A stretch of 64,000 bases of DNA. It comes from Candidatus Omnitrophota bacterium. GTDB lineage: Bacteria > Omnitrophota > Gorgyraeia > Ghiorseimicrobiales > Ghiorseimicrobiaceae. Below are positions 35,608-58,125 of this stretch, piece after piece (position 1 is the stretch's first letter; each line of letters begins with the position of its first letter). The DNA lies in contig JAUXSB010000003.1 in the NCBI GenBank assembly GCA_030681595.1, forward strand, positions 31,207 to 95,206, in the 5' to 3' direction. The notes under the pieces were generated by a model. The model did not search any database. It was not told where the DNA came from and saw only the letters and a list, made by a program, of their open reading frames with translations. Made by a program: the position numbers and the translations under genes.

Positions 35608-35794
35608 CTTATGGCTTTGGCTAAATTGAAAGCCAAACCATTGCCTTGTGGCTTATGGCTTTGGCTATATTGAAAGCCAAACCATTGCCTTGTGGCTTAT
35701 GCCTTTGGCTATATTGAAAGCCAAACCATTGCCTTGTGGCTTATGCCTTTGGCTATATTGAAAGCCAAACCATTGCCTTACCGGCTTATGCCTT
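35608..35794. repeat. Tandem array, 4.2 copies of a 44-bp hairpin unit
   Basis: The unit is CTTATGSCTTTGGCTATATTGAAAGCCAAACCATTGCCTTGTGG. Copies lie at 35608, 35652, 35696 and 35740, with a partial copy at 35785. Each unit contains the hairpin TGGCTTTGGCT-atattgaa-AGCCAAACCA. Confidence 0.9.
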
Positions 35795-38794: not shown

Positions 38795-39766
38795 TTAAGC
38801 GCCTTTTATCGGCCTGAATTCTTCAGAGCCATATGCCTTTAAATAATGGACATATGGCCCAAGACAAAGGCTATTGAATACGCACCCACTACAAGAAACC
38901 ACCTTCCTTCTAGAGGTATATTTAAATGAATCATCTTTATTCTTTACACTCACCAAATAACCTCTGGAAATTTTTAATATTACGCATCTGAACATCTCCT
39001 TGTCAATCTTATTAATTATGCAAAATGGCATAGAGAGAAAATATCTTGCAAAATATATAAATAAATCAGAATGATAACGATATCTTTTTGTATACAACTC
39101 TACGGCTTTTTTAAAATACCTTATGACCTTTGTATATCTGGGCATTAGAAAATGGTAAAAAATAAGGGAAGCGGCATGCGGCCTATAATGATCTATCATA
39201 AAACGCATTCCAGGAAACTGTTCAATTTTAAGCCTTACCAAAGATGGAATATCCGCATAATTTTGCGTTAAAAAAATACCGTTTAATGTTACGGGTAAAT
39301 CAAACCGAGATAAATTGTTCAATGCCTCCATCAAATCAACAAATGAACCTGGAGAATTAGTTATCGCATCGTTTATCTTTGCAGTAGATCCGTAAATAGG
39401 AACATGAAATCCATTAGCTCCTGCCGTTACGACTTTCTTTAGAAAAACAAAATTCTTTAATTTTCTTCCCGTGGTTTGAACGGTGATATTTGTAAAAGAT
39501 AATTTACGCGCAAAAACTAATAAATCAATAATGGATGAACGGTTCAGTATTTCGTTACCCGTAAAGCATATCTTGCGAAAACCAAGCGACTTCGCAAGGC
39601 GTATCCTACATTTAATTGTATTTATATCATCCGGCTCATCATGGGTAAGTTGTTGCGTATTTTTTCCATGTACTAATCGGCTGTTCTGACAAAACACGCA
39701 AGAGTTATCGCATTGCGAATCTAATACTAAAATTATTTCATCGTTGTTTTGGAGAATAGGCATCAC
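38795..39766 (-). CDS. Small radical SAM protein, paralog S13 (divergent)
   Basis: It has CDNSCVFC (CxxxCxxC), with FTGNEIL in place of GGEP. The C-terminal signature is CSGCVFNSLCLGPYVHYLKAYGSEEFRPIK. Confidence 0.7.
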   Translation of the reverse strand: MMPILQNNDEIILVLDSQCDNSCVFCQNSRLVHGKNTQQLTHDEPDDINTIKCRIRLAKSLGFRKICFTGNEILNRSSIIDLLVFARKLSFTNITVQTTGRKLKNFVFLKKVVTAGANGFHVPIYGSTAKINDAITNSPGSFVDLMEALNNLSRFDLPVTLNGIFLTQNYADIPSLVRLKIEQFPGMRFMIDHYRPHAASLIFYHFLMPRYTKVIRYFKKAVELYTKRYRYHSDLFIYFARYFLSMPFCIINKIDKEMFRCVILKISRGYLVSVKNKDDSFKYTSRRKVVSCSGCVFNSLCLGPYVHYLKAYGSEEFRPIKGA

Positions 39767-40650
39767 TTAACAGGTTTAAACTCTTGCCACCCAAAAAACT
39801 CAGGATATTCACGCCAGGGTCCCTCGCAAATTTTGAAATATTTGCATTCTTCACACTTCGGCCCTTTAAGTTTTCCATGTTCTCTGCGCCACTGGTTAAA
39901 ATTGGTTATCGGTTTAATATCAAATACCTTGGTTTCAGGAATAATCGCTTCACTAGCACAATTGGCATATTCGCTTAAAAAACAATACGGTATGGCTTCA
40001 GTTTTTGGCATTTTTTTCTTCCTAATGCCAATTTCCAGGCCGCGTTTTAAATAAAGAATAATATCTTTTTTCTGCGGTATTAGCCAACTATGATTCGCTA
40101 ATGCGTTTCCTAAAATATGAGGAAAGGAAAAACGATATTCAACCACCCCTAAGCCAACTAACATCAAAGCAATCTTAGGTAAAAAGCGGTAATTCAATGC
40201 AGTAATAACTGTATTAGTAAATACTACGCGACCAGAAGAAAGGAGATGCTTAATACCACAAATCGTCTGAGCGAAACTTCCCCTCGCTCCCGTATGGCTA
40301 TCATGCAACTCAGCATTATGTCCATGTACCGATATAGTAAAAAGACTTGCACCTGCCTCTATCATTTTTTTACAAAAATCTTTATACCTAAACATTCTTC
40401 CGTTGCTTTGAATATGAACAATATATCCTAACTTTTTAGAATATCTTACCAAGTCTATGATATCAAAACGTATTGTAGGTTCTCCACCTGTAAAAATTAC
40501 CTCTTTATAACTATCTTTCGAATCAGCTAAAATAGTTTCTATCTGTGAGCGCGCCATATCGTTGTAGATTTTGCGCTTGTTACCTTGGACACAAAAACTA
40601 CAGTGGTTATTACATCTAAAACTAATTTTTATATCCAGCCTCTTATGCAT
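39763..40650 (-). CDS. Small radical SAM protein, paralog S12
   Basis: It has RCNNHCSFCVQG, FTGGEPT, SVHGHNAELHD and IPYCFL. The C-terminus is CEECKYFKICEGPWREYPEFFGWQEFKPVK. Its closest paralog is 55967-56872. Confidence 0.85.
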   Translation of the reverse strand: MHKRLDIKISFRCNNHCSFCVQGNKRKIYNDMARSQIETILADSKDSYKEVIFTGGEPTIRFDIIDLVRYSKKLGYIVHIQSNGRMFRYKDFCKKMIEAGASLFTISVHGHNAELHDSHTGARGSFAQTICGIKHLLSSGRVVFTNTVITALNYRFLPKIALMLVGLGVVEYRFSFPHILGNALANHSWLIPQKKDIILYLKRGLEIGIRKKKMPKTEAIPYCFLSEYANCASEAIIPETKVFDIKPITNFNQWRREHGKLKGPKCEECKYFKICEGPWREYPEFFGWQEFKPVK

Positions 40651-40681
40651 ACATCTATCCTAACCTTAATTATCCGTTGTC

Positions 40682-41614
40682 TTACGGCTCGCTTTTAACA
40701 TGTTTTATTGTCTCTTCTTTGGAAACAAAAACAGCGTATAGTTCTTGCGAAGAAAAATATTTATCCATCGCATAAAGGCCGGGACATATTTCATTCAAAA
40801 AACAAACACTACAACACTCAACCTTGCCATATGACCATCCTCTTTGGACTTTAAGGCCCTTTTCATCTAAGAAATAAATCGCGCGCTTCTCTCTCTTTAT
40901 TATTTTTCTGGCTTCCGTAGAACAATGTGCAAAATCAGCCATGTAACATAAGGGTACGCGTTCCGCCCTAAAAGTTCTCTTTTGCTCGGCTAAAAAATGC
41001 ATTGCCCTATTGAGCTCTAATTCAAAATCTATCAGTCGGGGAATCGTATCGGGATTTTCTGATGCGCGGTTCATCGAAGGGTCAATATTATTCCAGATAA
41101 AATGGCGAATAAACGGATATCTATTCACAAGCCACGCCGTAATTCTGCTTAAATGATCGGCATTATATTTATTAATCACGGTAATAACATCAACCTGCAA
41201 ATTTAACTTTTTGGCATTGTTAAGCGTTTTTTTAATGTTACATAAAGAATCCTTGTTCTCAGTAAGAAAACCCTGAATATCAGCACTATCAGAGTAGATG
41301 GATAAATTGATATGGTTTAATCCTGCCTCTGCCAATGAGTTAATATATTTAAAGTCGGCTGTTTTTTGGCCATTCGTTATTATTCTGACTGGAAAATTTT
41401 TGTTTGTTGCATACGCGATCAATTCAATGAGATCTGGATATAGGGTCGGCTCTCCTCCGCTTAAAATAACCCCATCGCAACCTATCTTGACATAATAATC
41501 AATTAACTCCTTAGCTTTCTTAAGAGATATGGTTTTATCAAACGACGGATTAGAACAAAATCTGCATTTTTGATTACAAATACGCGTAACCTGTATATAA
41601 GCTAATTCGGCCAT
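40682..41614 (-). CDS. Small radical SAM protein, paralog S11
   Basis: It has ICNQKCRFCSNP, LSGGEPTLYP and VPLCYM. The C-terminus is CCSVCFLNEICPGLYAMDKYF. Confidence 0.85.
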   Translation of the reverse strand: MAELAYIQVTRICNQKCRFCSNPSFDKTISLKKAKELIDYYVKIGCDGVILSGGEPTLYPDLIELIAYATNKNFPVRIITNGQKTADFKYINSLAEAGLNHINLSIYSDSADIQGFLTENKDSLCNIKKTLNNAKKLNLQVDVITVINKYNADHLSRITAWLVNRYPFIRHFIWNNIDPSMNRASENPDTIPRLIDFELELNRAMHFLAEQKRTFRAERVPLCYMADFAHCSTEARKIIKREKRAIYFLDEKGLKVQRGWSYGKVECCSVCFLNEICPGLYAMDKYFSSQELYAVFVSKEETIKHVKSEP

Positions 41615-41618
41615 GTTT

Positions 41619-42644
41619 TCAGTAATTGCATTTATGTTTATGCTTGTTTTTTATTTCTGAATCAAATATGCTAATCCGCTCTAAAGTATGCAATATTTCT
41701 TTCGGATTTTTATCTGAAAGCGTTAGATTAAAATTAGGATAAACTTTTAGATAATCTCTTCTTACCCCCGGGCATATTTCACACAAAGAACAGCCTCTGC
41801 ATTCTCTGTATTTATAAAAATCTTCTTTGGCGATATCATTTTGAGTCCTGAGATTATTTATCCCGCGCGAATCAAGATATAAGTTATTATGATATAAATT
41901 TTCTTTTAATTCAACACTGGACCATTCATAAGAAGAGAGGATACATAACGGAAAACCGCAAGCAGAAATTTTATCCGTAGGGTTATCCCCTCCTAACGCC
42001 TTTAACGCTTTTAAAAGATAAGGCTGAATCTTATTTAGCGGAGGAAGTATCTTTTTGTAAAAAGTACTGTCATTGCCGCCTAAATCCATAAATTTAAATT
42101 TTACCCTGAATGGCGTATGCCTTAATATTTTTTTAAGATGAGTCGCCATGCCCTCTAATTCTTTATAATTCAAGCTATTAATTACCGTGTTGAAATTAAT
42201 CGCTAGCCTTTCTCTTATCTTTTTATTATCCTTATTAAATGATTCGATATTTAGTAAAGCCTTTTCCTGTAAAGAATGGCAAAACTTATTTCTTGATATG
42301 GCATTTGCAACCTTTGGGATATGCGAGTGAAAAGAAAAATTTATCTGCACGACTCCGCCTTTAATAACCTTAACTAAAAAATCATAGTAACTAAGCATTG
42401 AACCGTTAGTTGTAACCTTAAGTTTTAAATTACATTTTTTGGCTTCTTCCAATATTTTTAAAAAATCTGGCCTAATGAATGATTCCCCGGTCATTAACAT
42501 AACTGTATCTTCCTTGTAACTCTTAACTTTTTGAAACAATTGCCTAATTTCTCCAAAAGAAAGATCTTTTTTATGCTTATGCTGCCTATCCAGACAAAAT
42601 AAACAGTTGAAATTACATTTTTGGGTAATGCCTGTAATAATCAT
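41619..42644 (-). CDS. Small radical SAM protein, paralog S10
   Basis: It has KCNFNCLFCLD, LMTGESF and FPLCIL. The C-terminus is CRGCSLCEICPGVRRDYLKVY. Confidence 0.8.
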   Translation of the reverse strand: MIITGITQKCNFNCLFCLDRQHKHKKDLSFGEIRQLFQKVKSYKEDTVMLMTGESFIRPDFLKILEEAKKCNLKLKVTTNGSMLSYYDFLVKVIKGGVVQINFSFHSHIPKVANAISRNKFCHSLQEKALLNIESFNKDNKKIRERLAINFNTVINSLNYKELEGMATHLKKILRHTPFRVKFKFMDLGGNDSTFYKKILPPLNKIQPYLLKALKALGGDNPTDKISACGFPLCILSSYEWSSVELKENLYHNNLYLDSRGINNLRTQNDIAKEDFYKYRECRGCSLCEICPGVRRDYLKVYPNFNLTLSDKNPKEILHTLERISIFDSEIKNKHKHKCNY

Positions 42645-44734
42645 TAATTTTCTATCGGCTTTAAATCAGAAAACGAATAAATTAATGCGTATTCTCGCCA
42701 TACGCCATTACAAAAATTATATAAATTACATTTAACACAATTTGGCCCCTTAATTTTGCCTAAATTTAAATTATTTTCCCGCGAATTAAATCTTAAAGTA
42801 TTTTCGGTATATTCCACACATTGGCTAAGGTACTTATGCCATCCTCCTATACATAACGGGACACCGCAATATGGATTAAATATCATTAAATCACATTTTT
42901 TAGCCAGCTCGACTGCCTTTTTGATATAGGGAGAGATTATTCCATATGACGGTATAAGATACTTATTTATTAATGCCCGCTCCCGCGGCTGGATAACCGA
43001 AAGCGAGATATTTTTAATTTGGGGAAATTTATTATGAACAAATTTTATGTATTCGGGTAACTCTTTGTAATTTTGGGTAGTTATAACCGGATTTAAGGTA
43101 ACATCAATATTTAATTCTAATGAATTCCTAATCCCTGCGATAGCCATATCGAAGGCACCCTCCAACCCTACCAGCTTATCATGAATTCCAGGTACTGAAG
43201 AATGCAGGCTAATAAATAGCTTATTCAGCCCGGCATATTTCAATTTTTTTAAATAATCGTTATCGGATAGCCTTATCGCGTTAGTTTGAACCTGAACTAT
43301 TTTTACTCCTTTTCTATGGGCATATTTTATCAACTCCGAAAGGTCTTTTCTCAGGGTAGGCTCACCGCCGGTAATATCCAACTCCAACCTTAATTCCTTA
43401 TCAAGTGCGGTCAAGCGGCCTATTTCAAGTTTAGCCTGTTTAGTCGAAAGCTCTTTTAGAGCATACGATTCCGGAGGAACATTACAAAATAAACATCCGG
43501 CATTACACGCTGAGCCTAATCGTAAAAGCTTATATGGGGAGTTTTTCTTGACATCACCAATACTAATTTTCTTTAACCCGGCTTTAATCGGTGATAAAAC
43601 CTCAAATCCGTGCTTACGGATATAATTACACTGCATTCCAGCACAGCCTGCCATATGTTTGCACTCCTTGCATCTTTTACTTTTCAAAAAATATCTGTGT
43701 TGAATATAAAAATCAAGAAACTTTAAAATATCTTTATTTTTTTGGTCATTTTGCACATATACTGCCGGCCTGCCCGAATATCCCGGTTCATTTATTTCCC
43801 CTAAACAAAAAGGGGAGGCATGCGAAAGTATTTTATTTTTTTTCTTTAATTCTATTAAATCCTTACAAAAATTTTCTAAAAAACAAAACCGGCACCTCAA
43901 GCCTTTACAATCCATCACTTTGCCTTTAAAAAGAAAATTATTAAACATATCCTTGCGGCCGCCTACTTCATCGTATAATTTAGCCGGGTGCTGGATTAAA
44001 TATTCAAATCCTTCAAGATACTGCGGGGGGAAACGATTTGTCCATATATGTAGCCGCGGATCTTTGGATAGCATAAAAGCTTTGCGCAAAAATTTAATTG
44101 ATTTTTGAATATCATAAAAGAGAATATCCCTCTTAGCCCATGCTTGCCCAAATGGGATAACTTGCAAAAGATCAAACTCATATACGCCCAAATTAATAAA
44201 GAATTCTAAAATACTTGCTAAATACATTACATTAATTTTGTTTATCACAATATCAACACTAACAATCAAATCTTTTTCTTTTAAAGCATTAACTAAGGCT
44301 ACTAACGACTGCTGAAATGATCCCGGTACTTTAGTTTGTTGATCATGAAGCCTGCTATTATGCCCATGCAGCGAAAAGGTTATTTCTGATACACCGCTTT
44401 CTATTGCCTGCTTTAAGAAGCTCTGGTAGGCAAACATCCGGCCATTGGTAATAACTTGAATATGGCTGTATCCTAATGTCCTCGCCATATTAACAATATT
44501 AAAAAAATCCGGATGGATTGTTGGTTCTCCCCCGCTTAAAACAACTCGTCTTATCCCTAAACCTCTGCCTTTTTGTAAATCGGCTTTGATCTTCTCTAAA
44601 GGGATTACGCTCCCATCATGGGCTTCTTTATCTAAACAAAAGAGGCAGCGGTTATTACAACCCCGGGTTAGCCGTACCCAGTGTCTTTTTACCTGTGGTA
44701 TAATTTCTCGTTGCATAGAATAGCCTTTTATCAT
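42644..44734 (-). CDS. Fused di-domain radical SAM protein (paralogs S8 + S9 in one 696-aa polypeptide)
   Basis: There are two complete units. Unit 1 has GCNNRCLFCLDK...LSGGEPT...CKECKHMAGCAGMQCNYIRKHGFEVLSPIK. Unit 2 has ACNAGCLFCNVP...ITGGEPT...VPLCIGG...CVKCNLYNFCNGVWREYALIYSFSDLKPIEN. Confidence 0.85.
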   Translation of the reverse strand: MIKGYSMQREIIPQVKRHWVRLTRGCNNRCLFCLDKEAHDGSVIPLEKIKADLQKGRGLGIRRVVLSGGEPTIHPDFFNIVNMARTLGYSHIQVITNGRMFAYQSFLKQAIESGVSEITFSLHGHNSRLHDQQTKVPGSFQQSLVALVNALKEKDLIVSVDIVINKINVMYLASILEFFINLGVYEFDLLQVIPFGQAWAKRDILFYDIQKSIKFLRKAFMLSKDPRLHIWTNRFPPQYLEGFEYLIQHPAKLYDEVGGRKDMFNNFLFKGKVMDCKGLRCRFCFLENFCKDLIELKKKNKILSHASPFCLGEINEPGYSGRPAVYVQNDQKNKDILKFLDFYIQHRYFLKSKRCKECKHMAGCAGMQCNYIRKHGFEVLSPIKAGLKKISIGDVKKNSPYKLLRLGSACNAGCLFCNVPPESYALKELSTKQAKLEIGRLTALDKELRLELDITGGEPTLRKDLSELIKYAHRKGVKIVQVQTNAIRLSDNDYLKKLKYAGLNKLFISLHSSVPGIHDKLVGLEGAFDMAIAGIRNSLELNIDVTLNPVITTQNYKELPEYIKFVHNKFPQIKNISLSVIQPRERALINKYLIPSYGIISPYIKKAVELAKKCDLMIFNPYCGVPLCIGGWHKYLSQCVEYTENTLRFNSRENNLNLGKIKGPNCVKCNLYNFCNGVWREYALIYSFSDLKPIEN

Positions 44735-45693
44735 TTAATTGCCCTGAATTCGCCCCAGCCAACCTTTTCGGCATAAAGATTATCTATACCGCTGCATTTA
44801 TAATAATATTTGCATGGTTTACAGCTTTTATTTTTTATATTCCTTGATTCACGAGGTAATATTTCTACTCTTTTATTTTTAACCTGAAGTGGGATTTCGG
44901 ATTCCCCGACGTAATTTTCATAACCTACCATCAAACAAAGCGGCACAGGAGATATCTGTATAACGCCGGATAATCTAAACAGCTTATCTACTTTTAACCT
45001 ATCAATTACATTCCTAACTTCTTTAGCTACATCCAAATAAGTAACAAATAACTGACTGAAGAATCTTTCTGCGTTGCCGGAATACATTGGCATATTTAAC
45101 ACAATGCTATCTACTTTATTAAACGGTAAGATTTTTCTTAAGAAATTTTCAATATCTCTGTAGTTAATTTTTGTCATGGTAAAATTAACATTAAGCCGAA
45201 ATCTATATTTTTCCTTTAAAGAGACCATGTTGCATAACCCTTGCCATGTTTGTTCAAATGCACCGCTGCTACGAGTTAAGGCATCATGGATTTTTTTATT
45301 ACTCCCGTGAAGAGAAATATTAATCTCATTTAGCCCGCTATCTAATAATTCAATGCAAAAGTTTTTATATCTTAATAAACGCCCGTTTGTCTGTAGGCAA
45401 ATATCTTTATATCCCCACTTCTTAGATAATCTTATGAAATAAAGTAAGCCCTTATTCAGCGTTGACTCTCCCCCCGTAAATGATATGGAATCGACTTCTT
45501 TTGTTTTTCTTCCATCTCTTTTAAACATATCCAGATTTAAAAATGGTTCTCCGTTGACACTGCAATAATATTTTGACAACATATTCTGGCCATTAATACA
45601 ATCGCGATCACAGCAAAAAATACAATTATTGTTACAACACCCGCTGGTTTTAATATGAATTCTACTATCAGGGCTTATAATTACGTTATCCAT
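44731..45693 (-). CDS. Small radical SAM protein, paralog S7
   Basis: It has CCNNNCIFCCD, FTGGEST, SLHGSNKKIHD and VPLCLM. The C-terminus is CKPCKYYYKCSGIDNLYAEKVGWGEFRAIK. Confidence 0.85.
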   Translation of the reverse strand: MDNVIISPDSRIHIKTSGCCNNNCIFCCDRDCINGQNMLSKYYCSVNGEPFLNLDMFKRDGRKTKEVDSISFTGGESTLNKGLLYFIRLSKKWGYKDICLQTNGRLLRYKNFCIELLDSGLNEINISLHGSNKKIHDALTRSSGAFEQTWQGLCNMVSLKEKYRFRLNVNFTMTKINYRDIENFLRKILPFNKVDSIVLNMPMYSGNAERFFSQLFVTYLDVAKEVRNVIDRLKVDKLFRLSGVIQISPVPLCLMVGYENYVGESEIPLQVKNKRVEILPRESRNIKNKSCKPCKYYYKCSGIDNLYAEKVGWGEFRAIK

Positions 45694-45696
45694 TCT

Positions 45697-47055
45697 CTAA
45701 CGGTAAAAAAATAATGCGTAGATATATTTTTCTTCCGGCTTATCAAAATAAAAACAAATGTAATCATCAAAAATCTTTATTTTTCCAAGCCGCTTTAAAG
45801 CGTAAATAGCATAAGGAAAGGCAACAAAAATACTTGTACCAAACACAGCCTCAAATATTTTTTGAGGAACCTTGGATTCTAAGGCTAAATGATTTATTAT
45901 AAATTTTATCATCGCCTCTTTTTTCCTTAATATTCTACCCTCATATATTTTACTATCAAACTCAAAATGCCTCGGTTGCTTAACTTGACGATACTCCAGC
46001 ATACCATGTATATACGACCTGGAAAATGTTCCCAGGCCAAAGGTACACCCTGCGTATTCACCGGAATAATCTTGGGAAAAACTAGAGTCAAGATGTTCCT
46101 TATGGCGAAAGCCCCAATGGAACCTGGCAGGGTCAAAAGAGTCCGCTACATAGCCGAATTTCCGGCTTAATACACGCATAATTTTTAATGCCCGTGAAAT
46201 CATGGATGGATAATGCTTTTGAAAATAATCTGCGCGGCTCATCTTGAAATATTTACGCAGATATCCGTCATTAGGCGGCATTAAACCATAGACAACGATA
46301 TTATAAGGCCTTAATTTAGCAATTTCAGAAAAACTTTTTGTAAAGCCATTTGGGCTATCCCCTGCGAGACCGGCTATTAAATCGACACTAATATCCCTAA
46401 AACCATTTTCTTTTACCAGCCCAATTGCTTTTTTAATGCTCGCGTAATCCTGATAGTCCCTTTTATGAATTTTTAAAACCTTAGCATTTAAAGTTTGCAC
46501 GCCAAAACTAACTCTATTAAATCCAAAATGCTTAAGTAAGCTCAATCTTGAATTTCTTGTACTGCCTGGATTACATTCGGCTGTTTTTTGGCTATCGCCA
46601 CAAAATGAAAAATACCGGAAAAGATTTGTGAGAACCTTATCAAGTTGTTTGCTGTTTAAAATACTTGGTGTACCGCCTCCGACATAAAGATTACGGAATT
46701 TAATTTGGCTGAATGTATCGGAAAAAAAACACATATTCTCAATCAAATAATCCACATACCGGTCTATCTCTCTCCTGTCTCTTGCTGTCTGCGAAGGATA
46801 CGAACAATAAACACATTTTGACTGACAAAATGGGATATGGATGTAGAAATCGATATCGCACGGGTTGTTTTTATTTTTAGCATACTGGATAAATTTAGCC
46901 CAATAATCTTTAATTAGGCGGGGGCTAATCTGCCGGTTATAATCGGAATATGTATGCAGTTGATTAATATCATAAAAATAATCCCTCCGCCTAAGAATAT
47001 TTTCAAAATACGACACCTCATTCCTTAATATTTTTAAAATGTTGTTATCGCTCAT
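45697..47055 (-). CDS. HemN-like (oxygen-independent coproporphyrinogen oxidase family) radical SAM enzyme, copy 2
   Basis: 452 aa. It has YIHIPFCQSKCVYCSY, LYVGGGTPS and NRVSFGVQT, the classic HemN/HemZ-family motifs. Confidence 0.8.
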   Translation of the reverse strand: MSDNNILKILRNEVSYFENILRRRDYFYDINQLHTYSDYNRQISPRLIKDYWAKFIQYAKNKNNPCDIDFYIHIPFCQSKCVYCSYPSQTARDRREIDRYVDYLIENMCFFSDTFSQIKFRNLYVGGGTPSILNSKQLDKVLTNLFRYFSFCGDSQKTAECNPGSTRNSRLSLLKHFGFNRVSFGVQTLNAKVLKIHKRDYQDYASIKKAIGLVKENGFRDISVDLIAGLAGDSPNGFTKSFSEIAKLRPYNIVVYGLMPPNDGYLRKYFKMSRADYFQKHYPSMISRALKIMRVLSRKFGYVADSFDPARFHWGFRHKEHLDSSFSQDYSGEYAGCTFGLGTFSRSYIHGMLEYRQVKQPRHFEFDSKIYEGRILRKKEAMIKFIINHLALESKVPQKIFEAVFGTSIFVAFPYAIYALKRLGKIKIFDDYICFYFDKPEEKYIYALFFYR

Positions 47056-47063
47056 ATGAATAA

Positions 47064-47990
47064 CTAAATAGGGCTTAATTCTTTATCGCCAAATTCTTTA
47101 TAATAACGCTTAAATATTCCCCCGCAGATATTCTTCTTTGCGCAACGCTGGCATACAACTGTATAGATCCTCCCCCTAACCGGCCTGTACGAATGCGTAA
47201 CCTTAAGAAATCTTTGGCTACTTCTATGCATCTTTTCGATTGTCGTCCGGGGAGACCACCAAAGATCATTAGAACAGCCCTGATAATTATTCAATATACA
47301 AAGCGGTATCCCAAAAAATCTAACAACCAAAGAATTCCTATCGGCTTCGGATATAATTGTTCTAATGTTTTCTTTAATTAACTTAAGGGGCACGGATAGC
47401 TCGCAAAAATTATCCAAAGCATTGCCTTCAGGAGCAATATTAGAAATGAGTATCTGCTTTATTTTTTTGAAATTAGAGATAAATTTGATTATGCGATCTA
47501 GCGATCCAAAATTATACCGCGTCAATACGATATTAACAATGCCGAATATGTCTTTCGGATGCCTATCTATATTTTTTAACGCACGAAGCAAATTATCAAA
47601 ACTATGTTCGTTATTTGTATGAAAATTATGGAGTTTAGCGCTGTGGCCATGCAAAGAGAAGCAGAACTCATCAACATAATTTAAGGCCTCCCGAGTGAAA
47701 TCTTTTAAATAAAATAATCCTCCGTTACTCGTAGTATAAGTTTTATAGCCTTTAGTTTTTGCTAATTTAACTATTTCCACAAAATCGGGATGAAAAGTCG
47801 GTTCTCCTCCGGTAAAAGTAACATGATTAATTCTTCCCTTGTGATATTTTTCCAAAACGTTATTTACAACCGATTTCGGCAAAAAATACCCTTTAAACTT
47901 TATTAGCTGCTTATGCTCACTGCAAAAAATACAGTTATTTACGCAATCATAGGATATATGCAATTCTAATCGTTGTATATTATTTTCCAT
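47064..47990 (-). CDS. Small radical SAM protein, paralog S6
   Basis: It has DCVNNCIFCSEH, FTGGEPTFHP, SLHGHSAKLHN and IPLCIL. The C-terminus is CQRCAKKNICGGIFKRYYKEFGDKELSPI. Confidence 0.85.
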   Translation of the reverse strand: MENNIQRLELHISYDCVNNCIFCSEHKQLIKFKGYFLPKSVVNNVLEKYHKGRINHVTFTGGEPTFHPDFVEIVKLAKTKGYKTYTTSNGGLFYLKDFTREALNYVDEFCFSLHGHSAKLHNFHTNNEHSFDNLLRALKNIDRHPKDIFGIVNIVLTRYNFGSLDRIIKFISNFKKIKQILISNIAPEGNALDNFCELSVPLKLIKENIRTIISEADRNSLVVRFFGIPLCILNNYQGCSNDLWWSPRTTIEKMHRSSQRFLKVTHSYRPVRGRIYTVVCQRCAKKNICGGIFKRYYKEFGDKELSPI

Positions 47991-47994
47991 ATCA

Positions 47995-48912
47995 TTATTT
48001 AATCGGCTTTATTTCGCGATCACCATAATATTTTAGGTATATATCCCAAACACCTTTACACTTATCAGCAATCTTACAAAATAAACATTTTCTAATTTTT
48101 ATTCGATTAATTATTTTTTTTGACTCGATATTTTCGTACTGTTCAATTTTATTTTTAGATATCAACCGAGGCGTACTTTCAAACGAATATTCATTTTCCT
48201 CGATAGTACCGGATATCTGCTTAAGATAGTCCCCAAAATAGCATAAGCAGGGAACATTTAAAGCCGCATAGCTAACCTCATCATCTAACCGCCCAATATC
48301 TAAAAATTTGCGAATATAATACGCGGCTGTAGAAATACGCGGCGTATATTTATAAAAATCACGCGGGGAACTAACATAAATGAGGCATGCCGTTTTTATC
48401 CCAACACGATAGATTAACTTACCTATATCATATAAATATTTATAATTCTGCTTAACAATTACCGTGTTTGTACCTATATTATCAAACCCGAATTTCCTAA
48501 GGTTGGCAATCCCTTCCTTAAGATGTTTAAAGCTCCCCTCTACCTGCGATAGATAATCGTGTAATTTTGCATTATGCCCGTTGATCGTAAAGATTATACG
48601 AGAAATTCCTGCCTCAATAGCCCTACGAGTAAAATCTTCATAAGAGAAAAACCTGCCATTTGTAGTCAAAGTGATATTTTGAAAACCTATATTTTTGGCA
48701 AATTTTAGCAAATAAAAAAAGTCCGGCCTAATCGTAACCTCCCCCCCGGCAAAAAAAGCATCAACAGCCCCAGCTTTTTTCGCTTCTTTAATCTCCCGCA
48801 TTATTTCCTGTGTCGTTTTAACAGGAATACCCCTATATGCCCTATCGCCGCAAAAACGGCAATAATTATTACAGGAATAACCGGTAAGAAATTTTGCTGT
48901 TTTATCTTGCAT
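47995..48912 (-). CDS. Small radical SAM protein, paralog S5
   Basis: It has SCNNYCRFCGD, FAGGEVT, TINGHNAKLHD and VPCLCY. The C-terminus is CLFCKIADKCKGVWDIYLKYYGDREIKPIK. Confidence 0.85.
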   Translation of the reverse strand: MQDKTAKFLTGYSCNNYCRFCGDRAYRGIPVKTTQEIMREIKEAKKAGAVDAFFAGGEVTIRPDFFYLLKFAKNIGFQNITLTTNGRFFSYEDFTRRAIEAGISRIIFTINGHNAKLHDYLSQVEGSFKHLKEGIANLRKFGFDNIGTNTVIVKQNYKYLYDIGKLIYRVGIKTACLIYVSSPRDFYKYTPRISTAAYYIRKFLDIGRLDDEVSYAALNVPCLCYFGDYLKQISGTIEENEYSFESTPRLISKNKIEQYENIESKKIINRIKIRKCLFCKIADKCKGVWDIYLKYYGDREIKPIK

Positions 48913-48922
48913 TGATAATAGT

Positions 48923-50455
48923 TTATTGCTTGGAGTTAGAGTTGAAGCACCGATTGTACTGCCCGCATTCTCGGCAAAATCCCCGCCATAAGTTTAAATT
49001 GAGATTATCCACCATAAGGCGACTTTGTGTTAACGCCGCAAGATATTTCGATTTCTTATAAATACAATAGATCTCGGAATGATACAACTTCAAAATTTCG
49101 CTGATATCGGCTTCGGAAAAAAATTCTGTGCAATATGGGATGACGGATAAATTAGATTTGGAGAAATTATAAAAATCCTTTAAGGAATTTACTTTACTTA
49201 ATACTCCGTATTTTTCTGGATAAAGGAATAGTGGAGAAGCAGGGTCAATCGCAGTTGAGTCCTGGCGTATTTCAACATTCGCTAATCTATTCCGTATGGA
49301 ATTAATGAATTTTAATGTTTCATATATATTTTTTTTTGTTTCAAAAGGCAAACCCGCGGAAAACGATAAGCATAATTTAAGATTTTTTTTATTGGCATAC
49401 AATAAAATCTCTAATATTTCATTATTTGAATAGCCCGCCTCTTTATTCATTTTCCTGATTTTTCGCGATCCGCTTTCTAAAAAAATTGAAATAATTGACC
49501 CCCTTTGAAATGTTTTCGCGAATTCGTCAATAAATACCTTTGTTGATAATCTGCAATCACCAAAATTTATAGTTAGGTCGATTTTATTTTTCCGTATTTC
49601 TTTAAACAAATCCATAAAATATGCATCATTCTGGCTCACCGCATACATATGCAGTTTATTGATATTATATTTTTTCAGTCTTTTTAAATCCTTAATCACA
49701 TATTTCACATCGGCAAAAACAATTTTACTTCTCTTGTTAATATTTTTTTGGGCCGAACACCCTCCCCCACAAAAAGAACAGCTCCTGACGCATCCCCGGC
49801 TAGCAGTATAATAAAATATTGGTTCGCTATCCTTATTGTTTAAATCCATAGAGAAGAATCTTATATATTTATCGTGGTTACGAATAAGTTTAAAGTTCGC
49901 ATATGATAATCTGTTAATTATGGCTTTGCCGGCAACATAAGTATGGGGGTTTTCAACTATGCCTTCACCGTCTCTCCATACCAAGTTCGGGATAAGGCGC
50001 AACCCCTCCGGAGATTTACTTCGGATACTATTTAAAAGCGCTAATAAAGGGATTTCCGCATCACCCTTGATGACAAAATCTATTTCTTTATATGTACGCA
50101 TAATTTCAGTGGCGAAAAGTGAAGCCGTCATCCCGCCTACTATCACCGTAATCTTTTTAATCCCGCGTTTTAAATATTTAATCGCCTCCAATACTTCGTA
50201 TGTATGCTGATACCAATGAAGATCAAATAATACTGCCCAATAACCTCTACTTATAACAAAATTTTTCAAGTCAAAACTGGGATTTAAGCTTTTTTCCAGG
50301 CCCAGATGAATAATAGACGGTTTAAAGCTATTTTTTGATAAATAGTCTGCGATGCCTATCATGCCGCGAGGCATCAATTTTATGCTAGGATTTTTCCCCT
50401 CTCTGGATACATGGACAAAACAAACTTTATTATTAAGCTTAAGGTTAGCAGCCAT
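48923..50455 (-). CDS. B12-binding-domain radical SAM enzyme (class B)
   Basis: 510 aa. The N-terminal Rossmann-like cobalamin-binding region reads VIVGGMTASLFATEIM...DFVIKGDAEIPLLALL. This is followed by ASRGCVRSCSFCGG and a C-terminal CRECGQYNRC. Confidence 0.75.
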   Translation of the reverse strand: MAANLKLNNKVCFVHVSREGKNPSIKLMPRGMIGIADYLSKNSFKPSIIHLGLEKSLNPSFDLKNFVISRGYWAVLFDLHWYQHTYEVLEAIKYLKRGIKKITVIVGGMTASLFATEIMRTYKEIDFVIKGDAEIPLLALLNSIRSKSPEGLRLIPNLVWRDGEGIVENPHTYVAGKAIINRLSYANFKLIRNHDKYIRFFSMDLNNKDSEPIFYYTASRGCVRSCSFCGGGCSAQKNINKRSKIVFADVKYVIKDLKRLKKYNINKLHMYAVSQNDAYFMDLFKEIRKNKIDLTINFGDCRLSTKVFIDEFAKTFQRGSIISIFLESGSRKIRKMNKEAGYSNNEILEILLYANKKNLKLCLSFSAGLPFETKKNIYETLKFINSIRNRLANVEIRQDSTAIDPASPLFLYPEKYGVLSKVNSLKDFYNFSKSNLSVIPYCTEFFSEADISEILKLYHSEIYCIYKKSKYLAALTQSRLMVDNLNLNLWRGFCRECGQYNRCFNSNSKQ

Positions 50456-50536
50456 TTAAAAGCGTGAAAATGTGTTTTCTTTCGAATAAATACGCAAATT
50501 ACTGTGAATCATTTTTTTAAATTTACGGTTATCCCC

Positions 50537-50775
50537 CTAGGTGTTTAAAAGTATATCCCGTATAGACGAAGAGGTTTTTCCGATATCATCCAAACTTTTT
50601 ATATCATTCACTGTGCCAAAATAAAATTCTCTTTTTAGCTTTTTAAATTTAGTCTCAAGCAATGGCCCCCCACAAAATATATCCCCCCGTCGCAATCAAC
50701 AGCCGGTTCAGAAGATATGATCCGCTCACCTTCCCGAATTTTGAAATTCGCTATAAAATTAATAATCTATTGATA
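50537..50775 (-). pseudogene. Possible decayed or frameshifted small ORF in the only large intergenic gap of the cluster
   Basis: Two overlapping minus-strand frames read ...EGERIISSEPAVDCDGGIYFVGG and GGPLLETKFKKLKREFYFGTVNDIKSLDDIGKTSSSIRDILLNT*. Adding one G in the G6 tract (50666-50671 on plus) would fuse them. No canonical start codon is present. Confidence 0.25.
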
Positions 50776-50800
50776 CTGGGTAAAACTTGCGTATCCATAA

Positions 50801-51742
50801 TCATTTTATCGGCTTTAATTCTGAATCGCCGTATAGCTTATAATAAGGCCGAAAAATTCCTTTGCAAAAATTATTTTTTTTACATACCCTGCATAATCTG
50901 GTTTTAGCGGCCATTGGGGTAGAGCGATTAATTTTTCGCAGGCGCAAAGAACCTTTCTTGTACTCCATTCTATCGTATTGCTCGTTAGCCTCTGCACTAC
51001 AATCATCTATATTGCCTGAAAAATCAGGCAGTACACAAGAAGGAACCCCAAAAATCCTGATATTCATCTTCAGGATTTGAGCTAAATTAAAAATGAGATG
51101 CGCTTTTTTTTCCCATTTACTTAACCTTACCGTATATTCCATGATAAATTTTTTATTTGCCGTTACGGGGACCATATTTGAAAATAACACCCTCTTTACT
51201 CCCAAATTATGCAACCCTATAATTATATCTTTTAAATATGGAAAATTATATTTTGTGACTACGGAGTTAGTTAATAAGTTAATTCGCGGATTTATGTCCA
51301 GGATATTCCGTAAGGCGCCGATTACTTTTTTGAAACTTCCGGGATTATTGGTATGACTATCATGAAGCCCAGCATTATGGCCATGCATAGAAATAACTAT
51401 CTCATCAATAAATGGGACTACCTTAGCCGCGAAAGAATACGAACTAAGCATAACGCCATTAGTGTTAAGATGCACCTCAAAACCATGGCTTTTTGCGGCA
51501 TAAAGAACATCGAAAAAATACGGATACAGCGTCGGTTCTCCCCCGGTAATAAATAGTGAACTATATTTCCCGGAATTTTTTTTAAAGAATGCGGTAATCC
51601 TATTCAAAGCAAAAGGTTGTAGGCTAAGATTCTCCTGTGCTCTGTTATCGGCTTCCAAACAAAAATCGCAATTGTTGGTACAGGCATAAGAAAGCATTAT
51701 TTCTAAGCGCTTTATTTGCTTACTCTTCTTCAATGTATGCAT
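50801..51742 (-). CDS. Small radical SAM protein, paralog S4
   Basis: It has ACTNNCDFCLE, ITGGEPTLYP, SMHGHNAGLHD and VPSCVL. The C-terminus is CRVCKKNNFCKGIFRPYYKLYGDSELKPIK. Confidence 0.85.
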   Translation of the reverse strand: MHTLKKSKQIKRLEIMLSYACTNNCDFCLEADNRAQENLSLQPFALNRITAFFKKNSGKYSSLFITGGEPTLYPYFFDVLYAAKSHGFEVHLNTNGVMLSSYSFAAKVVPFIDEIVISMHGHNAGLHDSHTNNPGSFKKVIGALRNILDINPRINLLTNSVVTKYNFPYLKDIIIGLHNLGVKRVLFSNMVPVTANKKFIMEYTVRLSKWEKKAHLIFNLAQILKMNIRIFGVPSCVLPDFSGNIDDCSAEANEQYDRMEYKKGSLRLRKINRSTPMAAKTRLCRVCKKNNFCKGIFRPYYKLYGDSELKPIK

Positions 51743-53114
51743 CTAAGTCTTGATGTTCTATATCATTAATTCTACTTTTAGCAACAGAATACTTACTTTT
51801 AAAAATATTCATAACTTTTTTGCTGTAAAAAATTTTGGATAAGATAAAATACTGTTTTTTATCCTTAAAATTTGGCCGAAAAATTAAACTGCTGTCTAAA
51901 CAATTTAAATTTCGCTTTAAAAAACTAATTTCTTTTTTAAAGGCCGGATTAAAATCAACGCCAAACAGCTTAAAAAACTTTCTTTTGTTTATCCCTTGAT
52001 AAAGAAACTTAATAATATAATATCTGCTTTCTTCATCCCTGTTCATTTTATAGCCATTATATAACTGGGCTGATTTAAAATAATTATTAATACCGGTTGA
52101 TAAACGGTAACATCTGTTTGCAAACGCATAAGATATCGCGCCGTATCCTAAGCCCAAAATAGATACCTTAAAATCTGGGGACTCAAATAAATTAATCTGC
52201 GGGTTTATTGCTTCCTTTGATAAAGCCGACCCTGCGCGGCCGATGCTTTTATAGCCAGAAAATTTCTCTAAAATATTTCTCTTGATATCAACCATCATCT
52301 TCCTTCTTCTTATGTCGCGTTGCGTAAATTTAAAATTTTTCCTTGAAAATAAGGTATTTTTATCTGGCAAAAAAGGATTAACATGAATAATATCGGGGTG
52401 CAATTTAACAACCATCAATAATGATTTAACGAATGACTGTATTGTCTGCCCCGGTAAGCCAGCCATTAAATCAATATTCAAATACGGAATGCCTATTTCT
52501 CTTGCCTGAGTAAACGCTCGGTAAACTGAATCTCGGGTTTGTTTTCTCGCCATCTTTACCAATACTTTTTTATCCAGTGTTTCTACGCCGATAGTCAGGC
52601 GCTTTAATCCTAGATCCTTAAGTAATCTTAACTTACCGCTATCAAGAGAATTCGGATGCGCATCAATGGCGAATAAAAAATAATCCTCAAAGCAGAACTT
52701 TCCTTTTATGTATTGAATCAAATCTGCAATCTGCTGGTTTCTCAATACAGTCGGCGTGCCTCCTCCTATATATAAAGAACTAAATTTAATGCCCCTGAAT
52801 AGGCTATGAAAAGAATCGATTTCTTTCTTTAAAGCTCCCAGGTAAGTATCAAGCTGAGAGAAACTCGATAGCGGGAAAGAAACACAATTACAATAAACGC
52901 ATTTTGTCTGGCAAAAAGGAATATGTATATAAAGGCATATTTTATTAAGACGGGGGTCTCGCTTTAAATTACGGGCAACGTTTTTCCATGATTTAATAAT
53001 CTCATCCTTGCTAACATTAGACCAAATCAAAGGCGGAGGATATAATACGGGATAACCATCTTCCAAAGAATGCAATGTGATATTTGTAAAAAGCGCATTA
53101 TCCATAATATCCAT
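51720..53114 (-). CDS. HemN-like radical SAM enzyme, copy 1
   Basis: 464 aa. It has LYIHIPFCQTKCVYCNC, LYIGGGTPT and KRLTIGVET. It is a paralog of 45697-47055. Confidence 0.8.
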   Translation of the reverse strand: MDIMDNALFTNITLHSLEDGYPVLYPPPLIWSNVSKDEIIKSWKNVARNLKRDPRLNKICLYIHIPFCQTKCVYCNCVSFPLSSFSQLDTYLGALKKEIDSFHSLFRGIKFSSLYIGGGTPTVLRNQQIADLIQYIKGKFCFEDYFLFAIDAHPNSLDSGKLRLLKDLGLKRLTIGVETLDKKVLVKMARKQTRDSVYRAFTQAREIGIPYLNIDLMAGLPGQTIQSFVKSLLMVVKLHPDIIHVNPFLPDKNTLFSRKNFKFTQRDIRRRKMMVDIKRNILEKFSGYKSIGRAGSALSKEAINPQINLFESPDFKVSILGLGYGAISYAFANRCYRLSTGINNYFKSAQLYNGYKMNRDEESRYYIIKFLYQGINKRKFFKLFGVDFNPAFKKEISFLKRNLNCLDSSLIFRPNFKDKKQYFILSKIFYSKKVMNIFKSKYSVAKSRINDIEHQDLDAYIEEE

Positions 53115-54082
53115 TAATTAATAGACGTGAAATCGTCAACGCCAAAATTATCGATATAATCTTTATATGGCCCGATACAGCTGTTCCTTCTCTTGCAATC
53201 CAGGCATTTATCAATCGGGGGATTTTGAATAATTACCTCCTTAGCATATAAATTGGGGTAAGAATCTAAATTTAAAACTTTTTTATCAAACGCAATACAA
53301 AATGGAAGTTCGGAAGAAGCGTCGTTTAGTTTACCGAATCTCTCCAAAACACAAACCGGAAAACCACGGAGAAATTCTTTTGACTTTTTTAGCTTGAAGA
53401 ATAAATTACGATACGGAACCATTAAATCCTTATAGTTAATGTCCTTGGGAAATGGATGAAATTTAACATGGATGAACCCATCAAAAAAAAATCTTGGGAA
53501 GGCATAATTACAAAACCCGAGAATATCATCTAAAAAACAATAATTTTGCTTTAATACAATGGAATGAAGATTGATATTCAACTCCCTAATCTTATTTAAT
53601 GCGCGTAAAACGCTGACAAGCGCTTCAAATGAACCTTTTTTCCGGACAACTCTGTCATGCACTCTAGCATCGGCGCCATAAATCGGTATATAGAAATTAA
53701 ATTTTAAAGGCAGACGCAAGATATTATCTAATGTATCTTTTTGTCCTAATTTTAACCCGGAAGTATGCAGATTGACTTCTTCATAGCCAAGCTTATGGCT
53801 AAAATTTAAAATTTGCGCTATAAATGGATGTGCCAGAGGCTCATCACCGCTTAAAAATATCTTTTTTAACTTTAGCCGCCTTCCAATGGCTAAAAGCCCT
53901 TTTATCCTAAACAATTCGCTATTAAGGCTATTATTTTTAATTTTACCCGGCTTACCGGGATAATTGGAAGTGCAAAAAATACAGTCATAGTCGCATTTAC
54001 TTGAAATTGGCAGAAGCGCATATTCAATTTTATTTAAAAGGGGCAAATTCTTTGTCACCATAGATTTTAAGGTATTCTTCAA
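53114..54082 (-). CDS. Small radical SAM protein, paralog S3
   Basis: It has KCDYDCIFCTS, LSGDEPLAHP, IYGADARVHD and FPVCVL. The C-terminus is CLDCKRRNSCIGPYKDYIDNFGVDDFTSIN. It overlaps the upstream gene by 32-53 nt, depending on which start is used. Confidence 0.8.
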   Translation of the reverse strand: MKNTLKSMVTKNLPLLNKIEYALLPISSKCDYDCIFCTSNYPGKPGKIKNNSLNSELFRIKGLLAIGRRLKLKKIFLSGDEPLAHPFIAQILNFSHKLGYEEVNLHTSGLKLGQKDTLDNILRLPLKFNFYIPIYGADARVHDRVVRKKGSFEALVSVLRALNKIRELNINLHSIVLKQNYCFLDDILGFCNYAFPRFFFDGFIHVKFHPFPKDINYKDLMVPYRNLFFKLKKSKEFLRGFPVCVLERFGKLNDASSELPFCIAFDKKVLNLDSYPNLYAKEVIIQNPPIDKCLDCKRRNSCIGPYKDYIDNFGVDDFTSIN

Positions 54083-54977
54083 AGATTCCTCCGCATACAG
54101 AAAATAGCCGGCATTTTATACATTTAGCGATTTTTATTCTCGACATATCAATTATATTGCTGGAAAAATTTGATATTGATTTTCGCGTGCTTATTTCCCT
54201 ATTCCAAAGGCACATTTCTGAGTCATTCTTAAACCTTTTACCTATCCTCATCTCTGGCTCATAAACTTCAAAAGCATACATAAAATTATCCTTGCCTAAA
54301 ATACATAACGGCACGCCCCCGAATCTTAACGGTATCCCGGATTCTTTTGAATATTCTGCCAATTTAAGGATATATTGCTTAAGCTTACTAAAATTTACTA
54401 CTAAATTTTTATAATCGTTTTTCGCATTTCCGCTAGGGACCAAATTTAAGTACCTTACGCAGCGGGGGCTATATTTAGACACGACTTTAAATATATCCAG
54501 CAATGACGCGGCATTATGTTTTGTTATGGTTACATTTACAAGAAATGCTTTTTTATAATATTTCCTAACATTTTTAAAAGCTTTTATCAATATCTTAAAA
54601 CTATTCTTATTGCCGGTATGTAAATTATGCACATATTCATCCGGGCCTTGTATTGAAAGGCACAAATCGTCGATATATTCAAAAGCCCTATTGCAAAAAA
54701 CTTTATCGGTAAACATAACACCATTCGATATAACATAAATTTGATAATTTAGATTTTTTGCGGCATGTAAAATTTCAAGAAACTTAGAATGCAAAGTTGG
54801 TTCTCCTCCCATAAAATGGACTAAACGCGCTCCCCGCTTTTTCTCTTTTTTCAGAACTTTTATTATAAATCCAAACGGGAGTTCACTATTATCAAACCTT
54901 GAATTCTCGCTGCAAAAAATACAGTTATTTGAACATTTATTCGCGATAAATAATTCTATCCTGTTTATTTTAAACAT
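54030..54977 (-). CDS. Small radical SAM protein, paralog S2
   Basis: It has KCSNNCIFCSEN, FMGGEPTLHS, SIQGPDEYVHN and VPLCIL. The C-terminus is CIKCRLFSVCGGIFEEYLKIYGDKEFAPFK. Confidence 0.85.
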   Translation of the reverse strand: MFKINRIELFIANKCSNNCIFCSENSRFDNSELPFGFIIKVLKKEKKRGARLVHFMGGEPTLHSKFLEILHAAKNLNYQIYVISNGVMFTDKVFCNRAFEYIDDLCLSIQGPDEYVHNLHTGNKNSFKILIKAFKNVRKYYKKAFLVNVTITKHNAASLLDIFKVVSKYSPRCVRYLNLVPSGNAKNDYKNLVVNFSKLKQYILKLAEYSKESGIPLRFGGVPLCILGKDNFMYAFEVYEPEMRIGKRFKNDSEMCLWNREISTRKSISNFSSNIIDMSRIKIAKCIKCRLFSVCGGIFEEYLKIYGDKEFAPFK

Positions 54978-57842: not shown

Positions 57843-58125
57843 GAGAACCATGGGAACTATGGGAGCCATGGGAGCCATGGGAGCCATGCGGAGTGCCCGA
57901 ATTATGCCCTCCTCTGCCGGCTGTAACAAGAGCATTAGCATGGTTATTATGCGAAGCATGGCTGGCAGCCTGGGCAGAATCAGGCTTAAACATCGCGGAT
58001 AAAACAGCTAAAGATATCCCTATCTTAGCGATATCCTTTTTGCTAATTTTACCTTCTTCTCTTAAAAGGAAATCTTTTATTTGCTTCTTGATCCGCGGTA
58101 ACCTACTTTCGTTTTTTTCTTTCAT
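57829..58125 (-). CDS. His-Xaa-Ser repeat peptide (HxsA-like), candidate RiPP precursor
   Basis: 98 aa. The N-terminus is charged (MKEKNESRLPRIKKQIKDFLLREEGKISKKD) and is followed by the hydrophobic segment IAKIGISLAVLSAMF. The C-terminus is ASHASHNNHAN...HNSGTPHGSHGSHGSHSSHGSHGQW. The DNA has 9-bp tandem CATGGCTCC repeats. A G8 tract lies 4 nt upstream of the ATG. Confidence 0.65.
   Translation of the reverse strand: MKEKNESRLPRIKKQIKDFLLREEGKISKKDIAKIGISLAVLSAMFKPDSAQAASHASHNNHANALVTAGRGGHNSGTPHGSHGSHGSHSSHGSHGQW

Follow-up and report, generated by a model that had tools for sequence, protein, structure and literature searches.

A conserved fusion of two HxsC-like radical-SAM modules, probably a bifunctional maturase, in an expanded His-Xaa-Ser cluster of Candidatus Omnitrophota

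A protein containing two complete radical S-adenosylmethionine (SAM) modules is encoded in a 64,000-nt stretch of Candidatus Omnitrophota DNA (the window), within a large cluster related to the His-Xaa-Ser (Hxs or HXS) peptide systems. We consider it probable that this protein is a selectively maintained fusion of two adjacent, anciently diverged HxsC-like genes in an HxsA4-type operon, and that it functions as a bifunctional maturase. An earlier reading of the DNA letters (the sequence-only reading) had proposed a head-to-tail fusion of neighboring paralogs and had suggested that split and fused versions be sought in related genomes, where both states were indeed found. P-numbers denote related proteins and L-numbers related loci; the two halves are termed the N-module and the C-module (Table 1).

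The fused gene is a single open reading frame (ORF) with an ATG start, encoding 696 aa with no internal stops in the ORF listing; its start codon overlaps the stop codon of the upstream gene as ATGA. A copy at NCBI (P0001), from a 307-kb contig of a Candidatus Omnitrophota metagenome-assembled genome (MAG), is 100% identical, starts at M7, and comprises 690 aa. PF04055 (Radical_SAM) matches the protein in two separate stretches (145.7 bits vs a cut-off of 29.5, E = 1.8e-42), which is far beyond chance. The Pfam score, both CxxxCxxC motifs, and both GGEP-type SAM-binding motifs place the protein in the radical-SAM superfamily, and every motif string that the sequence-only reading quoted for the two halves is present.

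The N-module displays its radical-SAM motif as C26-x3-C30-x2-C33 within RGCNNRCLFC (nt 44636-44659) and LSGGEPT at aa 66-72 (SGGEP at 67-71), and it ends with CKECKHMAGCAGMQCNYIRKHGFEVLSPIK, aa 384 being the last residue (...GFEVLSPIK). Eight further conserved Cys, spaced C276-x4-C281-x2-C284-x5-C290, C310, and C355-x2-C358-x5-C364, would be enough for two auxiliary Fe-S clusters. The C-module opens with a conserved SPYKLLRLG, contains C410-x3-C414-x2-C417 within SACNAGCLFC (nt 43484-43507), ITGGEPT at aa 454-460 (GGEPT at 456-460), and CGVPLCIGG, and has auxiliary Cys spaced C623-x4-C628 and C666-x2-C669-x5-C675; its C-terminus is CVKCNLYNFCNGVWREYALIYSFSDLKPIEN. A Pfam scan of the fused protein for SPASM (PF13186) gave no match, though conserved Cys sets are present in both halves.

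The modules are joined by AGLKKISIGDVKK, a hydrophilic linker that is the least conserved stretch of the protein and varies in length among orthologs. The sequence-only reading had put the linker at roughly 20 aa; its true length is about 13 aa, as the SPYKLLRLG that follows is the first strand of the C-module. The same reading had recognized an internal ...SPIK tail that is normally C-terminal, and the N-module does end where its stand-alone orthologs end. No in-frame ATG, GTG, or TTG was found at the junction (aa 379-412), so the C half can be made only as part of the fusion. A promoter and terminator scan of 36-55.9 kb returned counts at or below chance (78 vs 88.8 ± 9.8; 13 vs 13.6 ± 3.6), with nothing at the junction.

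The fusion is a lineage trait and is not peculiar to the window genome. A search covering 5.8 billion proteins retrieved fused relatives from independent Logan, JGI, ENA, and NCBI assemblies, with fused orthologs of 658-712 aa showing 93-100% query coverage and 51-64% identity. Domain parsing assigned the [N][C] architecture to P0002-P0017 and P0022, each half being 48-65% identical to the window protein. One continuous frame crosses the junction in at least 16 independently assembled orthologs (52-63% identity); P0002, P0003, P0004, P0006, P0007, and P0009 have the same linker length, and the fused ORF was confirmed at the DNA level in the species-representative genomes L012, L013, and L015. 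In an alignment of 16 fused sequences (A2), the invariant columns comprise SGG 67-69 and C276, C281, C284, C290, C310, C355, C358, and C364 in the N half, and C410, C414, GGEPT 456-460, C623, C628, C666, C669, and C675 in the C half. All 14 rows that extend to the N-terminus retain C26, C30, and C33, at least 90% of the rows retain C417, and the junction is the sole poorly conserved, length-variable stretch. Conservation is about equal in the two halves (e.g., 64/64% with P0002), which suggests purifying selection on both.

From an alignment of 92 sequences, AlphaFold2 predicted two well-ordered modules (predicted local distance difference test, pLDDT, 93.4; predicted template-modeling score, pTM, 0.68), with both cores above 90 and a dip in confidence at residues 381-400 (pLDDT 69-84 at the linker). 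Foldseek and phmmer searches of the PDB both aligned each half with one radical-SAM core at a time (Foldseek E = 1e-11 to 1e-8, ~230 residues), and no solved structure covering both halves was found by either (query-normalized template-modeling score at most 0.31).

The halves are old, distant paralogs rather than recent copies, as they share 24.6% identity over 284 aa (E = 2e-17), no closer than the 22-36% identity of each half to the 12 remaining small radical-SAM paralogs in the array. Each half has its own group of stand-alone orthologs (50-64% identity) in several phyla. Stand-alone N-modules are 382-397 aa long and end a few residues past ...GFxxLxP. Free C-modules, with lengths of 305-337 aa and up to 63% identity, have 9-25 residues between the initial Met and LPYxLLRLG. 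Because the linker aligns with these free N-termini, it represents the former N-terminal tail of the C-module.

Examination of related loci revealed three (L008, L009, and L091) in which the N and C genes are adjacent, co-oriented, and in the same order as in the fusion, with overlapping stop and start, an arrangement of the Rosetta-stone type. Together with the origin of the linker, these loci bear out the proposed fusion of adjacent paralogs; the adjacency emerged only from searching with the C half. Loss of a stop or an indel of one nucleotide would be enough to switch between the fused and split states. In L091 (5930-6080), a one-base indel in the homopolymer run GAAAAAGGGG would weld the N and C frames, and the split there could be a real fission or a sequencing frameshift. 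The gene orders listed in Table 1, running from a470→N→a406 through the split to the fused state, can be read as an evolutionary series, with N→a406 without a C-module being the commonest arrangement among related loci. Bootstrapped neighbor-joining trees of the concatenated modules (~700 columns) group fused P0008 with split L009 (100% bootstrap), fused P0016 with split L091 (90%), and the window protein with fused P0002-P0004 (80%). These mixed clades imply at least two changes of the fused/split state outside the window's own clade.

A scan of species-representative genomes identified at least 559 loci with a relative of the N-module, of which the best 80 were examined. They belong to Omnitrophota, Patescibacteria, Elusimicrobia, Spirochaetes, and Myxococcota, including the cultured Polyangium fumosum DSM 14668 (L086). 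The N-module is the most conserved array member and the C-module an accessory member: among the 80 loci, three have the latter fused to N, a handful more have it as a separate or otherwise fused gene, and it was not detected in the stretches fetched for the remainder. In the sample examined, it occurs only in clusters that also hold the N-module. A rule that the C-module always follows the N-module was ruled out by L001 (N→a416) and L003 (N→a406), both without a C-module, by L005 (Parcubacteria; N→a406→C), and by L010, where C lies upstream of N.

Elsewhere, N-module fusions involve at least six further array families (Table 1). By Rosetta-stone logic, this network suggests that the fused enzymes act in one process, and the joining of N and C in two independent orientations suggests that this pair is specifically linked. 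The earlier idea that neighboring array enzymes act together, physically or sequentially, gains indirect support from the reverse-order fusions and the other partner families. Larger fusions were also observed in related clusters, including triple radical-SAM proteins of ~1000-1040 aa (P0039, P0058, and P0072), some with PF19238, and fusions of radical-SAM with glycosyltransferase-2 domains; Peptidase_U32 genes adjoin some of the large fusions. N-module variants (P0100, P0102, P0112, P0114, and L075-L090, the loci being from Myxococcota and including L086) display an insertion of ~50-120 aa at aa ~297-335, which falls in the region with the extra Cys motifs.

The fused gene lies in a tightly packed minus-strand block of ~36.0-61 kb (cluster ~36000-61600), whose GC content of 0.30-0.37 compares with 0.41-0.46 in the housekeeping flanks (LptD, ROK kinase, a MiaB/RimO-like protein, and RsmE). 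The low GC content, along with module orthologs 50-60% identical across distant phyla, suggests a horizontally transferred island. The gene order is HxsD, HxsD-like, HxsB, a 254-aa Cys-rich protein, HxsA4, 16 radical-SAM genes, and four others; including HxsB, the cluster totals 17 radical-SAM genes and 18 domains. Gene junctions within the array measure -53 to +31 nt, apart from one 345-nt gap (50456-50800) that splits it into two blocks. Since HxsA4, HxsB, HxsD, and HxsD-like score above their NCBIfam cut-offs, the array represents a greatly expanded His-Xaa-Ser system.

Most array members are HxsC-like paralogs of ~300 aa. The best family matches of the fused protein are HxsC4 and HxsC, HxsC4 being the top model for the N half and several paralogs. 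The HxsC model (TIGR03977), whose cut-off is 267.9 bits, gives 91.0 for the N half, 105.3 for the C half, and 186.7 for the whole protein as a sum over two stretches; the HxsC4 (NF038332) scores of the N and C halves are 119.2 and 103.5 bits against 500. Single array paralogs score 87-166 bits on HxsC4 (best 166.3; permissive threshold), and no gene of the array passes either model. Just downstream of the cluster, an intergenic 44-bp tandem repeat (35608-35794; 4.2 copies, 96% matches) holds the hairpin GGCTTTCAATATAGCC in each unit.

In the HxsA4 precursor, picked up only by a small-ORF scan, a hydrophobic segment lies between the leader (...PRIKKQIKDFLLREEGKI...) and a core of His-Xaa-Ser repeats that ends HGSHGSHGSHSSHGSHGQW. 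No Pfam domain, including peptidoglycan-binding, was found in its 98 aa at E <= 0.01. In 28 fetched related loci, HxsA4-type precursors likewise have a hydrophobic segment between leader and core; the shared leader reads IKKxIKxFLxSEEGKI, the core is (His-Gly-Ser)n, and the peptide ends in W or WC. When the next radical-SAM gene (56859-57959) is given its longest-ORF start, it runs 131 nt into the HxsA4 ORF, which indicates that this start is over-called; the radical-SAM motif of that gene begins at ~aa 60. At the other end of the cluster, the polytopic membrane protein is laid out like a GxGD aspartyl protease, with D22 and GAGD at aa 98-101, and its orthologs close most related clusters (L001, L012, L017, and others). 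HxsA4 precursors share K-[ILTA]-[GAS] directly before the hydrophobic stretch, resembling a class III (prepilin-type) signal. Given this signal and the GxGD layout, the membrane protein may be a putative leader peptidase.

Table 1. Features of the fused gene and its cluster in the window, followed by related loci and proteins carrying split, rearranged, or otherwise fused modules.
Feature	Position, locus, or protein	Strand	Basis or remark
Fused di-radical-SAM gene	42644..44734	-	ORF; PF04055 x2; P0001 identical; fused orthologs P0002-P0017
N-module, aa 1-384	43583..44734	-	invariant alignment columns; stand-alone orthologs of 382-397 aa end here
Linker AGLKKISIGDVKK, aa 385-397	43544..43582	-	alignment columns 393-412; pLDDT dip; codon check
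C-module, aa 398-696 + stop	42644..43543	-	alignment; stand-alone orthologs P0121-P0161 (305-337 aa)
HxsA4 precursor, 98 aa	57829..58125	-	NF038313, 60.7 bits >= cut-off 55
HxsB, radical SAM/SPASM maturase	58892..60361	-	TIGR03978, 490.4 >= 370; SPASM
HxsD	60542-60967	-	TIGR03976, 55.4 >= 50
HxsD-like	60352-60561	-	NF038315, 64.8 >= 41
Cys-rich protein, 254 aa, signal-peptide-like N-terminus, between HxsB and HxsA4	58155-58919	-	no family match
Cys-rich protein, signal-peptide-like N-terminus, just upstream of HxsD	61011-61601	-	no family match
Radical-SAM array downstream of HxsA4, 16 genes, 17 domains	38795..57959	-	family searches
HemN-like genes	45697-47055, 51720-53114	-	radical-SAM array
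B12-dependent radical-SAM gene	48923-50455	-	radical-SAM array
PapB-like radical-SAM gene	56859-~57830	-	radical-SAM array
Paralog a406	40682..41614	-	orthologs are the commonest downstream neighbor of the N-module and are fused to it elsewhere; loci L025, L033, L035
Paralog a470	47064..47990	-	orthologs usually just upstream of the N-module
DUF483-like protein	37700-38770	-	conserved cluster tail
TPR protein	37215-37700	-	conserved cluster tail
GxGD-type polytopic membrane protein	36033-36956	-	weak Peptidase_A24 similarity, 24.3 < 26.5
335-aa protein "x549"	54970-55977	-	no Pfam/NCBIfam match; conserved in L003, L008, L009, L092
Split N then C	L009 (GCA_041643235.1)		7-nt overlap, ATGTTAATAA; genes at 8844-10007 and 10001-10927; N 55% / C 56% identity
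Split N then C	L008		29-nt overlap; N 61% / C 62% identity
Split N then C	L091		44-nt overlap beside GAAAAAGGGG run; N 53% / C 52% identity
Gene order a470→N→a406, without C-module	L003, L020, L021, L036, L042		
Gene order a470→N→C→a406, split	L009; L091		L091 with HemN-like gene between a470 and N
Gene order [N-C]→a416/a406, fused	window, L012, L013, L015		
[C][N], reverse order	P0018-21; L092		L092 within another Hxs cluster
[a406][N]	P0047, P0049, P0055, P0061, P0067		
[a470][N][C] triple	P0008		
[HemN-like][N]	P0037		
[N][DUF483-like]	P0071, P0092		
N + several other paralogs	various		a559-like among partners
Larger fusions	P0039, P0058, P0072; P0041, P0073; L001 693-4151; L010 425-2671		

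Catalytic activity is predicted for both halves of the fused protein, which at 78 kDa may harbor up to five [4Fe-4S] clusters, two of them SAM-cleaving and about three auxiliary. Two active sites on a short flexible linker would install two different, probably consecutive modifications on the (His-Gly-Ser)n core of HxsA4, whose gene lies 13 kb upstream of the fused gene. Fusion would fix a 1:1 stoichiometry and proximity of the two enzymes, analogous to CofG and CofH in FbiC.

Several other explanations for a two-module ORF were weighed. The window derives from a MAG and close relatives exist in split form, so a missed stop or frameshift at ~43570-43600 could have joined two separate genes. 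The orthologous loci argue the opposite: the 16 orthologs, from independent samples and assemblers, keep the same uninterrupted frame, similarity spans the junction in that frame (...GFxxLxP...KKNxPYxLLRL...), and L012, L013, and L015 agree at the DNA level. An assembly or sequencing artefact is accordingly rejected as extremely improbable. A recent internal tandem duplication of one unit would account for two halves from the same paralog family with the same overall layout, and we reject it with even greater certainty in view of their low mutual identity, the separate stand-alone orthologs of each half, and the ~85 extra residues and four extra conserved Cys of the N half that are absent from the C half. 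Pseudo-radical-SAM domains are known, "pseudo-SAM" NCBIfam families are among the matches listed, and the activity of both halves is deduced from sequence; one half might thus be a dead scaffold, serving as a substrate-recognition or Fe-S electron-relay domain, with radical chemistry confined to the other. This is very unlikely given that both CxxxCxxC motifs are kept in the fused orthologs covering them and in stand-alone orthologs, that both GGEP motifs and all auxiliary Cys are invariant in the alignments, and that both cores are modeled with pLDDT > 90.

A near-neutral origin, in which indels and lost stops weld operon neighbors at random without any special N-C partnership, channeling, or complex, appears unlikely to us. 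Under this explanation, the N-C fusion is tolerated because both enzymes belong to the same pathway. It would fit array junctions of -53 to +31 nt, an N-module fused to whatever adjoins it (a406, a470, HemN-like, DUF483-like, a559-like, and others), fused and split states that flip between close relatives, the single-nucleotide indel in GAAAAAGGGG that would suffice to fuse L091, and the absence of a C-module from the stretches fetched for most N-module loci. It accounts less well for an N-C fusion kept down to ~52% identity with both halves equally conserved, or for the restriction of the C-module to clusters with an N-module in the sample examined. Joining in the reverse order (P0018-21 and L092) is likewise unexpected from adjacency alone, unless the two genes were repeatedly kept as neighbors.

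A selectively maintained, bifunctional maturase thus remains the reading that we favor, and the following points weigh against it. The N-module has many partners and usually no C-module nearby, so the N-C pairing may be opportunistic, and the joining of adjacent genes as such could be neutral in part. The repeated changes of state are drawn from neighbor-joining trees of ~700 columns, and splits with 29-44-nt overlaps could be frameshifted fused copies. As the family scores fall far below the HxsC and HxsC4 cut-offs, "HxsC-like" expresses a resemblance, and the array genes are relatives rather than members of these families. HxsA4 is the probable substrate of the fused enzyme by virtue of co-location. 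A fixed interface between the modules does not follow from the pTM of 0.68, and the role of this subfamily as bifunctional maturases is proposed from sequence and analogy.

The HXS families TIGR03976-03979 reportedly go back to Haft and Basu in 2011. The canonical system, HxsD-HxsB-HxsC-HxsA, is an anti-phage system that blocks phage DNA entry (Li et al. 2026, Nat Commun, PMC13128918). HxsB and HxsC (two Fe-S motifs), together with HxsD, mature HxsA, which carries a peptidoglycan-binding domain; more than 99.8% of systems comprise four proteins, no fusions are mentioned, and the chemistry is known only as a +8 Da change, with no in vitro reconstitution (PMC13128918). The window resembles this system in possessing HxsD, HxsB, a His-Xaa-Ser precursor, and a gene order beginning D-(D-like)-B, and each half of the fused protein has, like HxsC, an N-terminal CxxxCxxC and a C-terminal CxxC-type Fe-S motif. 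The differences are that the window has 16 more radical-SAM genes after HxsA4, whereas canonical systems have four genes and one HxsC; that its precursor is of the short HxsA4 type, (HGS)n ending W, with no Pfam domain match; and that the hosts are Omnitrophota, Patescibacteria, Elusimicrobia, and Myxococcota instead of enterobacteria. With respect to the "rare" Hxs models of NCBIfam, the window HxsA4 passes NF038313, whereas the array members fall far below HxsC4 (NF038332). PADLOC v2.0.0, which lacks an HXS model, returned only generic pVip/viperin-level radical-SAM matches for the window.

FbiC, the F0 synthase, is a fusion of CofG and CofH whose two domains act in consecutive steps on one product, a separate 5'-deoxyadenosyl radical being formed by each (PMC11917521). 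FbiC and the fused protein of the window both unite two different radical-SAM domains that are separate genes in other lineages. Unlike FbiC, which acts on small-molecule substrates and is a stable fusion across large clades, the fused protein has a proposed peptide substrate, and its N-C arrangement flips between fused and split among close relatives, with varying partners. No CofG, CofH, or FbiC model is among its 25 best NCBIfam matches (the rest score < 87 bits), and FbiC is an analogy of architecture only. Each half also superposes on the cores of SPASM/twitch enzymes (BlsE, 7vob; SkfB, 6efn; GDGT-MAS, 7tol; PqqE, 6c8v; MoaA; and viperin), from which it differs in showing 14-25% identity and in the lack of a PF13186 match to the fused protein. 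A search of the literature on Omnitrophota and candidate phyla radiation (CPR) radical-SAM clusters, HxsA-D, and tandem radical-SAM proteins found no published description of the enlarged Hxs variant or of fusions within it; the "rare" HxsA4 and HxsC4 models of NCBIfam are the sole hint of it. What stands out is how combinatorially the modules are fused and how large and widespread the system is. As an evolutionary event, the fusion itself is ordinary.

A broader view, which is tentative and on balance somewhat doubtful, regards HxsA4-type clusters as a multi-subunit radical-SAM "assembly line" that processively remodels the (His-Gly-Ser)n peptide, with the fusions mapping subunit contacts. 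If so, the N-module, as the most conserved and most often fused member, would be the hub, and a contact map would follow from the N-C, C-N, a406-N, a470-N-C, HemN-N, N-DUF483, and triple-domain (~1000 aa) fusions. The outcome, on this view, would be a His-rich envelope peptide with dense cross-links, perhaps exported via a prepilin-peptidase-like step. Such a peptide could serve as an anti-phage barrier or in metal binding, in hosts that include ultra-small episymbionts.

Annotators should leave the fusion intact and not treat it as a frameshift to be "corrected." Fused enzymes may ease fixed-stoichiometry expression for reconstitution, and Polyangium fumosum DSM 14668, which has an N-module relative, would offer a genetic entry point if its cluster is complete. 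The natural fusions and fissions predict enzyme partnerships of N with C, N with a406, and N with a470. The Hxs family has a much larger branch, of which no description was found, in which a cluster may contain as many as 17 radical-SAM genes for a simple, probable (HGS)n substrate.

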